Of a stretch of 64,000 nt of DNA, positions 6,035-6,108 are shown one piece after another. The DNA is from a virus (lineage: Duplodnaviria > Heunggongvirae > Uroviricota > Caudoviricetes): the IMG/VR virus record IMGVR_UViG_3300025122_000007, positions 37,620 through 101,619 of that record, one strand, 5' to 3'. Position numbers and translations under genes: made by a program. The notes beneath the pieces were generated by a model. It was given only the letters and a program-made list of their open reading frames with translations, was not told the origin of the DNA and made no database searches. Each line of letters starts with the position of its first letter. The first letter of the stretch is position 1.

Positions 6035-6108
6035 TGGTATTCGCAGAGGGACTCGAACCCTCATCATCGGGTTTAGAATCCGCTGCTCTTCCTTTGAGCT
6101 ATGCGAAC
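6035..6108 (-). tRNA. tRNA with anticodon CUA (candidate amber suppressor); CCA encoded
   Basis: Acceptor GTTCGCA/TGCGAAT, D-stem GCTC/GAGC, T-arm GAGGG-TTCGAGT-CCCTC, 3' ACCA. Anticodon loop TTCTAAA, so the plus strand shows codon TAG. The anticodon stem is weak (GCGGA/CCCGA, 3 bp). Confidence 0.45.

Follow-up and report, generated by a model that had tools for sequence, protein, structure and literature searches.

Why should a phage carry a transfer RNA (tRNA) whose anticodon, CUA, pairs with the stop codon UAG, and which gene would such a tRNA serve? The question was raised by a tRNA gene in a 64,000-nucleotide (nt) stretch of DNA, hereafter the window (positions 37,620 to 101,619 of IMG/VR virus record IMGVR_UViG_3300025122_000007), which comes from an uncultured jumbo-type phage. 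A sequence-only reading had described the gene as a candidate amber suppressor, and suggested that it might signal stop codon recoding of some, often late, phage genes. Our study suggests that the tRNA is probably a working amber suppressor that gates the gene adjoining it, on which an early UAG would act as a translational gate. The adjoining gene encodes a protein that resembles peptidyl-tRNA hydrolase 2 (PTH2), and the positions of both genes and of the other features discussed are collected in Table 1.

Table 1. Features of the window, with the tRNA and the adjoining PTH2-like gene listed before the remaining members of the tRNA array
Feature	Position	Strand	Basis or remark
tRNA, anticodon CUA, encoded CCA end	6035..6108	minus	ARAGORN and Rfam RF00005
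Anticodon CUA (plus strand reads TAG)	6074..6076	minus	Sequence; ARAGORN cloverleaf
Shine-Dalgarno sequence AAGGAG of the PTH2-like gene, 6-nt spacer to ATG	6030..6035	minus	Sequence
Candidate gate codon TAG (codon 3), next base G	6015..6017	minus	Sequence
PTH2-like gene, 109 codons and TGA stop	5694..6023	minus	Translation through UAG
tRNA-Gln(CUG), 4 nt upstream of the CUA tRNA	6113..6185	minus	ARAGORN, Rfam
Sub-threshold tRNA-like match, 23.5 bits	5456-5534	minus	In the 330-nt gap after the PTH2-like gene
Surrounding tRNA array, 30 ARAGORN tRNAs and 3 Rfam-only	1227..27104	minus	ARAGORN, Rfam
Odd tRNA-like gene, 38.1 bits	26140-26219	minus	Rfam only
Two tRNAs not called by ARAGORN	13408-13479, 17686-17754	minus	Rfam only

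The tRNA was recovered by ARAGORN as a 74-nt gene with anticodon CTA, and by the Rfam model RF00005 with 61.2 bits and E = 8e-11, the gathering score being 29; it ranks fifth by score among the 31 tRNA matches of the window. Its acceptor stem has 7 base pairs (bp), including a G1.U72 wobble, with discriminator A73 and an encoded CCA. The D stem has 4 bp and a GG within the D loop AAAGGAA, the T stem has 5 bp and the loop UUCGAGU, the variable region is 4 nt long, and the 7-nt anticodon loop UUCUAAA carries U33 and the purine A37. The sequence-only reading had called a tRNA with a CUA anticodon here, which both programs confirm, and it had correctly read the good acceptor, D and T arms, the encoded CCA, the loop TTCTAAA and the TAG seen on the plus strand. 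As six independent metagenome assemblies hold this tRNA without a single base change, it is no assembly artefact. It belongs to an established class, that of phage amber suppressors.

In the present analysis, ARAGORN listed all CUA tRNAs as 'tRNA-Pyl'. The architecture of tRNA-Pyl comprises a 6-bp anticodon stem, a 3-nt variable loop and a tiny D loop without GG, and this identity was rejected on the ordinary D loop, the standard T loop and the 4-nt variable region. Nothing suggestive of pyl genes was seen among the Pfam matches of the 122 open reading frames (ORFs) of the window, among which the Pyl families were not checked by name. The tRNA has 4 nt of space upstream and 11 nt downstream, and no ribozyme or other Rfam element was found beside it at E <= 1. 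A weak match to YrlA, a Y-RNA-like model, overlaps the tRNA and its upstream neighbour (6055-6165); the tRNA-like module that this model contains is the probable cause. Comparison of isotypes gave mixed Arg, Trp and Asn matches with annotated phage tRNAs, mixed isotypes with 909 tRNAs from all fetched loci and no match with E. coli genomes, and an amino-acid identity was not obtained from the other tRNAs of the window.

The gene that follows has TAG as its third codon. The minus strand reads AAGGAG-AAAGAA-ATG CAT TAG GGC AAC CCC TAC GTT TAC GTA CTA GTT AGA AAG GAT, in which the ATG lies 12 nt past the last base of the tRNA and the first A of AAGGAG is the terminal A76 of the tRNA itself. Given this overlap between the CCA end of the tRNA and the Shine-Dalgarno sequence of the gene, the two are probably co-transcribed. 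After the TAG, no in-frame ATG, GTG or TTG occurs for 28 codons, the next being codon 31, and the full 109-codon ORF is readable solely if the UAG at codon 3 is decoded. Public gene callers give a truncated product of 74 residues only (P0002). A protein started at codon 31 would lack the first beta-strand and the greater part of helix 1, as the Pfam match of the full-length protein spans residues 9-75. The sequence-only reading had found no obvious in-frame TAG in the ORFs nearby, and for this gene, the one immediately downstream of the tRNA, it was mistaken.

Conservation of the stop was examined in 70 unique homologues, including those of the window, of Cronobacter phage GAP32 and of locus L093. 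Where the first in-frame stop upstream of the conserved R.D motif was TAA or TGA (n=28), a start codon came after it in 27 of 28 genes, which is the behaviour of ordinary genes, whereas 27 of the 42 genes in which this stop was TAG had no ATG, GTG or TTG before the first conserved strand (Fisher's exact p = 1.7e-7). The gate TAG lies 8-18 codons, most often 10, before the R.D motif of the protein. TAG was codon 3, with ATG two codons upstream, in 14 of the 25 IMG/VR genes that are strictly gated, and the ATG before the gate often had an AGGAG-type Shine-Dalgarno sequence. The codons around the gate vary by phage (MH, MS, MT, ML, MK, MI, MR and others before the stop); the stop and its position are conserved and no peptide is. 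The base after the gate TAG was A in 12, G in 11, C in 2 and T in none of these 25 cases. In E. coli, A or G after TAG favours suppression over termination by release factor 1.

Two homologues inform on the relation between the gate and the anticodon. The sole non-TAG gate, at locus L052, is a TGA (ATG ATG AAC AAA AAC ACC GCC TAC GAG TGA GCG CAG AAA CAC TTT), and the only tRNA in 10 kb of that locus is a tRNA(UCA), so that in this one case the gate codon covaries with the anticodon of the suppressor. A relative with 83 % identity to the window protein keeps ATG TCG TAG GGC next to a CUA tRNA with a quite different body, which indicates that the anticodon is conserved and the rest of the tRNA is not.

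Linkage of the gene to suppressor tRNAs was assessed by querying IMG/VR with the protein alone. A first scan gave three distant homologues (28-44 % identity), all three with a tRNA(CUA) at <= 3 kb, and one of them starts ATG CGT AAT TAG. An alignment-based scan gave 80 loci, mostly from contigs of 100-460 kb. A tRNA(CUA) was present within 5 kb in 59 of the 80, always on the strand of the gene, with tRNA(UUA) at two further loci and tRNA(UCA) at one. Loci with a single tRNA served as an internal control, and among these 29 loci the tRNA was CUA in 26, UUA in 2 and UCA in 1, with no sense tRNA; across loci, CUA accounted for 67 of 259 tRNAs. A control scan with the CCA-adding enzyme of the phage as query returned no loci. 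The neighbourhoods were otherwise unrelated, the next most shared protein family being present in only 18 loci of the 80. With a UAG at codon 3 of the adjoining gene and the pairing recurring at the loci of homologues, the earlier designation of the tRNA as a candidate amber suppressor is supported.

A reciprocal sample, drawn by a generic tRNA pattern, comprised 66 ARAGORN-confirmed CUA-tRNA loci. A PTH2-like ORF lay in the stored flank of 15 of these 66, and of 6 of the 19 with at least 3 kb on both sides, which makes the module widespread, with the gene at roughly one quarter to one third of the phage CUA-tRNA loci sampled independently. Beside ungated homologues, the CUA tRNA often abuts the stop codon of the gene. 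As homologues without the gate exist, the linkage of tRNA and gene is more fundamental than gating.

Two or three different CUA tRNAs stood in tandem beside the PTH2-like gene at L016, L022, L028, L029, L038/L039 and L082, with three within 320 nt at L016. A protein of about 100 residues with the motif YRHxHIAYCLLRGRxxEQIE was encoded directly upstream of an ungated PTH2-like gene or CUA tRNA at L023, L035, L037, L044, L045, L049, L053, L054, L056-L058, L060, L063, L067, L079, L080 and L082, and at about 10 of the generic CUA-tRNA loci. Neither the window nor any of the six cultured-phage loci scanned (L216-L221) encodes it, and it is possibly a third component of the module.

The product of the gene is predicted to have the alpha/beta fold of PTH2. 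The Pfam family PTH2 (PF01981) gave a weak match (E = 0.0025), aligned from position 4 to 77 of the profile, which at 18.4 bits does not reach the gathering threshold of 23, and 15 of 47 homologues have a precomputed match to the same family. An AlphaFold2 model built on a 46-sequence alignment had a predicted local distance difference test score (pLDDT) of 94.9, and its 12 best fold matches in the PDB by Foldseek were archaeal Pth2 or human Bit1/PTRH2, with template modelling (TM) scores of 0.7-0.79. A profile of the family also matched peptidyl-tRNA hydrolases of the PDB (E = 1e-6). With archaeal and eukaryotic Pth2 (PF01981; PDB 2zv3, 1q7s and 1xty), the phage protein shares VR.DL, Q..HA and an acidic loop before a T.(A/L)A strand. 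Some homologues are longer, with a further domain of about 130-190 residues fused N-terminally to the PTH2-like one (L013, L017, L018, L034, L042, L046, L073, Xanthomonas phage XacN1 at L092 and Stenotrophomonas phage CM1 at L220).

An alternative to a single gated gene is that the phage recodes TAG in many, typically late or lysis, genes (genetic code 15, in the style of crAss-like and Lak phages), with the PTH2-like gene being one of many. Suppressor tRNAs are a hallmark of recoded phages, in which recoding affects late genes and early regions are standard (Borges et al., 10.1101/2021.08.26.457843), and the sequence inspected here was the window and about 8 kb to its left, some 72 kb of a 185-kb longest matching contig. 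In addition, some of the independent CUA-tRNA loci (for example L162 and L175) show several in-frame TAGs aligned to Q, K or E and may be recoded, by a scan that was noisy. However, non-overlapping ORFs cover 0.82 of the window with the standard code, and 0.90, 0.91 and 0.90 with TAG, TGA and TAA, respectively, read as sense; there was no TAG-specific gain in coverage here nor in nearly all of the 80 related loci. TAG ends 16 of the 76 minus-strand ORFs (~21 %, from a crude gene set), among them a DNA ligase whose OB domain matches its Pfam profile to the last position, three residues before the TAG, and the completeness of this domain marks the TAG as a genuine terminator. In the GC-rich half of the window, the G+C content of third codon positions (GC3) is about 0.8 and tells which frame is coding without recourse to stop codons, and by this test the minus-strand genes at 34-64 kb contain no in-frame TAG. 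No release factor or aminoacyl-tRNA synthetase gene was found among the 122 ORFs of the window. Random use of code 15 would also scatter TAGs rather than fix one at codon 3, and in phage XacN1 read-through of all 18 amber stops gave no targets for its CUA tRNAs (PMC5852040). There was no sign of general TAG recoding within the window and the 80 related loci, which behave as standard code, and widespread recoding is therefore judged unlikely. The idea that the tRNA signals recoding of late genes is thus not supported within the available sequence, and the caution attached to it, that recoding would be rare or lie elsewhere, was justified for the window.

It is also conceivable that ATG-CAT-TAG is a separate two-codon mini-ORF like those of lambda bar. 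The PTH2-like protein would then arise through re-initiation or a non-canonical start, without involvement of the CUA tRNA. The bar minigenes consist of a strong Shine-Dalgarno sequence, ATG, one sense codon and a stop, which is exactly the architecture seen here; minigenes cause peptidyl-tRNA drop-off, and their functional link to peptidyl-tRNA hydrolase is a thematic tie that counts in favour of this explanation. An ATG or GTG also follows shortly after the TAG in some homologues (L093, L011, L016 and XacN1). The bar minigenes differ from the window gene in standing alone, with no in-frame protein-coding ORF after them. Moreover, the interval from the TAG to the first conserved strand is free of ATG, GTG and TTG in the window gene and in 26 further unique homologues, and in the window gene it also lacks in-frame CTG, ATT, ATC and ATA. 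A mini-ORF would leave unexplained the preference for TAG over TAA and TGA, the adjoining CUA tRNA and the TGA gate with its UCA tRNA, and we consider it quite improbable. The last explanation weighed was that both elements are junk, with the tRNA decaying from one with a sense anticodon (such as CCA of Trp, changed to CUA) and the adjoining gene inactivated by its TAG. The weak anticodon stem described below would fit such decay, as would the several degenerate tRNA-like sequences within the same array, and the array has no tRNA-Trp, a gene from which the CUA gene might have arisen by mutation. Nevertheless, the Rfam score of this tRNA is among the best of the array, the locus is identical in six assemblies, and the PTH2-like ORF is otherwise intact and confidently modelled. 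The pairing and the gate also recur in dozens of divergent phages with otherwise unrelated neighbourhoods, and relatives keep the CUA anticodon though the tRNA body has been replaced, which leaves decay a very remote explanation.

Several other TAG codons of the window were inspected. Apparent in-frame TAG junctions between long ORFs at 3534, 28663, 32526, 45916 and 55346 were ordinary gene ends followed by a new start, and plus-strand matches of the GC3 scan to an 'in-frame TAG' were antisense-frame artefacts. A homology search for further TAG-interrupted genes in all loci was swamped by alignments in non-coding frames, and the PTH2-like ORF was its only standout in the window. Some pairs of minus-strand genes in the same frame are split by TAG and 4-5 codons, namely the ligase and a BCS1-like AAA gene (3534-3536), genes for 178 and 118 residues (28663-28665) and an 89-residue ORF and an SPFH gene (32526-32528). 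Amber suppression would fuse each of these pairs; as two pairs split by TAA exist, their number is not clearly above chance.

On the preferred reading, in which the UAG gates the PTH2-like gene, a ribosome that starts at the ATG at 6023 would meet UAG as the third codon, and would terminate or drop off after a dipeptide where no charged suppressor was present. With the suppressor, presumably charged by a host synthetase and decoding the gate, read-through would yield the full 109-residue protein, the synthesis of which would be conditional on, and scaled to, suppressor activity. The gate lies in a non-conserved N-terminal stub, so the amino acid inserted would hardly matter. Our best guess for this residue is Gln, by analogy with phages that read TAG as Gln and with su7. 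The su7 tRNA-Trp(CUA) of E. coli is charged by GlnRS, and one pair of homologues aligns a TAG with Q (L058 and P0044).

As to the function of the protein, we favour the reading that it acts on tRNA-linked products of stop suppression. It would recycle dropped-off peptidyl-tRNA or, alternatively, brake the suppressor by feedback, and either role would keep read-through at a moderate level in a phage for which TAG is still an ordinary stop. Restraint on the suppressor seems needed, since about a fifth of the ORFs of this phage end with TAG. The family is tied to suppressors of UAG, UGA and UAA, which suggests a role in suppression in general rather than with one release factor or one tRNA identity. 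A feedback circuit, or read-through 'homeostat', in which suppressor activity would set the amount of protein made and the protein would then limit suppression, is a tentative extension of this reading that we regard as rather doubtful. In such a circuit, the protein might deacylate the suppressor, hydrolyse its peptidyl form or act on by-products of suppression. If true, the circuit would set the level of read-through in infected cells, would serve suppressors of all three stops and would stand as a natural parallel to both prfB autoregulation and the engineered switches gated by amber codons.

A number of observations weigh against the gating interpretation. The anticodon stem of the CUA tRNA is unusually weak, as the sequence-only reading had already remarked, with three G-C pairs flanked by the mismatches G27.A43 and A31.C39, and thus falls short of the 5-bp anticodon stem of an elongator tRNA; the tRNA-Cys of the same array also has an A31.C39 mismatch. 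Within the window, the signature of a Shine-Dalgarno sequence, ATG, up to 8 codons, a stop and an ORF was found once with TAG, against twice with TAA and twice with TGA, which is not above chance, so that the case rests on comparative data. Of the unique IMG/VR homologues, 42 of 67 were not strictly gated, which makes the gate optional and means that the linkage of tRNA and gene needs a reason beyond gating. A module with a single dependent gene would also be pointless, which implies that other dependent genes or functions exist, and none was found in the part examined. Charging of the tRNA, decoding of the gate and hydrolase activity are all putative. The catalytic residues of PTH2 are the Lys of a GK motif and the Asp of a DAG motif. 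Unlike in Pth2, the GK lysine of the phage protein is lost through a 2-residue deletion, its position aligning with Y/Q, and EPD stands in place of DAG throughout the family, in which E76 is invariant. The PTH2-like family may therefore not be a hydrolase at all, and a non-catalytic, tRNA-binding role is possible with such an altered active site.

The arrangement has partial counterparts in known systems. As in the recoding phages (Borges et al., 10.1101/2021.08.26.457843), a phage suppressor tRNA would enable the reading of in-frame stops and thereby gate expression. In those phages, the stops are scattered over many, mostly late, genes, and the module consists of tRNA, aminoacyl-tRNA synthetase and release factor, whereas here the code is standard, neither of these two partner genes was found and there is a single gate at about codon 3 in the sole gated gene found. 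The theta (hepatitis delta virus-like) ribozyme-linked suppressor tRNAs of gut phages (PMC10879173) are also CUA tRNAs with a conserved adjacent element, but here that element is a protein gene, with 11 nt between the tRNA and its ATG, and not a ribozyme.

The gene for release factor 2, prfB, is autoregulated through an early in-frame UGA and a +1 frameshift at codon 26. Like the gene described here, it is a translation-related gene set by how the ribosome handles an early in-frame stop, and it offers a precedent for a feedback circuit. It differs in that it depends on a frameshift and its product reads the stop, whereas the present gene would depend on read-through by a tRNA and the feedback is hypothetical.

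The orphan suppressor tRNAs of phages XacN1 (PMC5852040) and Atu_ph07 (PMC6102473) are of the same kind and occur in the same kind of phage, in large tRNA arrays near tRNA-processing genes. XacN1 has two CUA tRNAs in its terminal repeats (PMC5852040), and the target of the Atu_ph07 suppressor was left open (PMC6102473). In contrast to those papers, our study identifies a candidate target, and one that is conserved, for the orphan suppressor tRNAs of jumbo phages. An in-frame ATG AAA TAG precedes the two-domain gene of XacN1 (ORF364), and an N-terminal gate of this kind would not be revealed by the C-terminal amber read-through that its authors performed. Full-text searching of open-access papers and bioRxiv yielded no account of a pairing of suppressor tRNA and peptidyl-tRNA hydrolase or Pth2 in phages, and neither Borges et al. 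(10.1101/2021.08.26.457843) nor the theta-ribozyme paper (PMC10879173) mentions a hydrolase. The combination of a suppressor tRNA with a PTH2-like gene gated by the matching stop, in standard-code phages, thus appears to be new. It would represent a compact natural stop-codon gate, and ties a divergent protein of predicted PTH2 fold to nonsense suppression of all three stops.

The module is testable at the bench, being present in cultured phages of Cronobacter, Pectobacterium, Yersinia, Salmonella and Acinetobacter. The gene begins M A Q followed by the stop in Cronobacter phage GAP32 (L090), with a 'Sup-tRNA' 2.8 kb downstream, and in Pectobacterium phage CBB (L221), with a tRNA annotated 'Pyl' of anticodon CTA; the annotated coding sequences, GAP32_397 and CBB_406, are both truncated N-terminally. 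CBB encodes a canonical PTH2 besides the PTH2-like protein. In Yersinia phage fHe-Yen9-04 (L217), the gene begins M S H and stop, has a tRNA-Sup-CTA and is unannotated, and in Acinetobacter phage ME3 it begins M T and stop, with a CTA tRNA 430 nt upstream. Salmonella phage Arash (L218) has M L and stop and a tRNA at 7307-7381 that is annotated as Phe and read by ARAGORN as CUA; its gene is split into gp85c and gp84c, one piece of which is annotated as a 51-residue 'peptidyl-tRNA hydrolase'. For Ralstonia phage RsoM2USA (L219; M L and stop, gene unannotated) and the two-domain form of CM1 (M K and stop, in a record without annotation), no suppressor tRNA was found within 6 kb. In XacN1, the coding sequence is annotated from an ATG five codons past the TAG, and no suppressor tRNA lies within 3 kb. 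The copy in Klebsiella phage RaK2 is ungated. The gene is thus missing, truncated or split in the GenBank records of several cultured carriers, annotation errors that stem from the position of the stop at codon 3-4, which also explains why this candidate target was overlooked.

The CUA tRNA belongs to an array of about 33 minus-strand tRNAs, which extends from 1.2 to 27.1 kb and covers 19 amino acids. A tRNA-Trp(CCA) and an ARAGORN-called tRNA-Arg(UCU) were absent from the array and from 7.7 kb to the left (L003). Conversion of a Trp gene is one possible origin of the CUA tRNA. This tRNA is probably on one transcript with the neighbouring tRNA-Gln(CUG), and a scan for promoters and terminators around the locus was at chance level. 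Among the Rfam-only members of the array, the odd gene combines a sound acceptor stem and T arm with the lack of a D loop, and its anticodon loop is interrupted by 19 inserted nt immediately after 'UUCUA'. Such a gene may be a pseudogene, or else a second CUA tRNA with an insert resembling an intron, for which an alternative fold would give UCU. Of the remaining two, one has by eye the anticodon CUC (Glu) and the other is degenerate and UUU-like.

The window sequence recurs in contigs of up to 185 kb. By megablast with 7 kb of the window, no nucleotide relatives were found among GenBank phages, and the element appears to be without a close cultured relative. Proteins from jumbo phages of Caulobacter, Brevundimonas and Tunturiibacter share about 30 % identity with the BCS1-like AAA protein of the window. 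The window encodes peptide deformylase, an ATP-dependent DNA ligase, NAD synthase, two HAD_SAK_2 RNA-repair domains, NADAR and GroES, and just to its left (L001 12691-18059) lie a CCA-adding enzyme with an HD domain, Ro60/TROVE and ClpP. This set of translation and RNA genes is unusually rich, and its parts inside the window include 7328-7810 and 29195-30256. Composition changes abruptly inside one contig. Positions 1-34000, the tRNA-rich half, have a G+C content of about 45 % and a GC3 of about 0.45, and positions 34000-62000 have a G+C content of about 57 %, a GC3 of 0.75-0.9 and genes with essentially no PHROG or Pfam matches. The junction is spanned by at least three independent assemblies and is therefore not a chimera.

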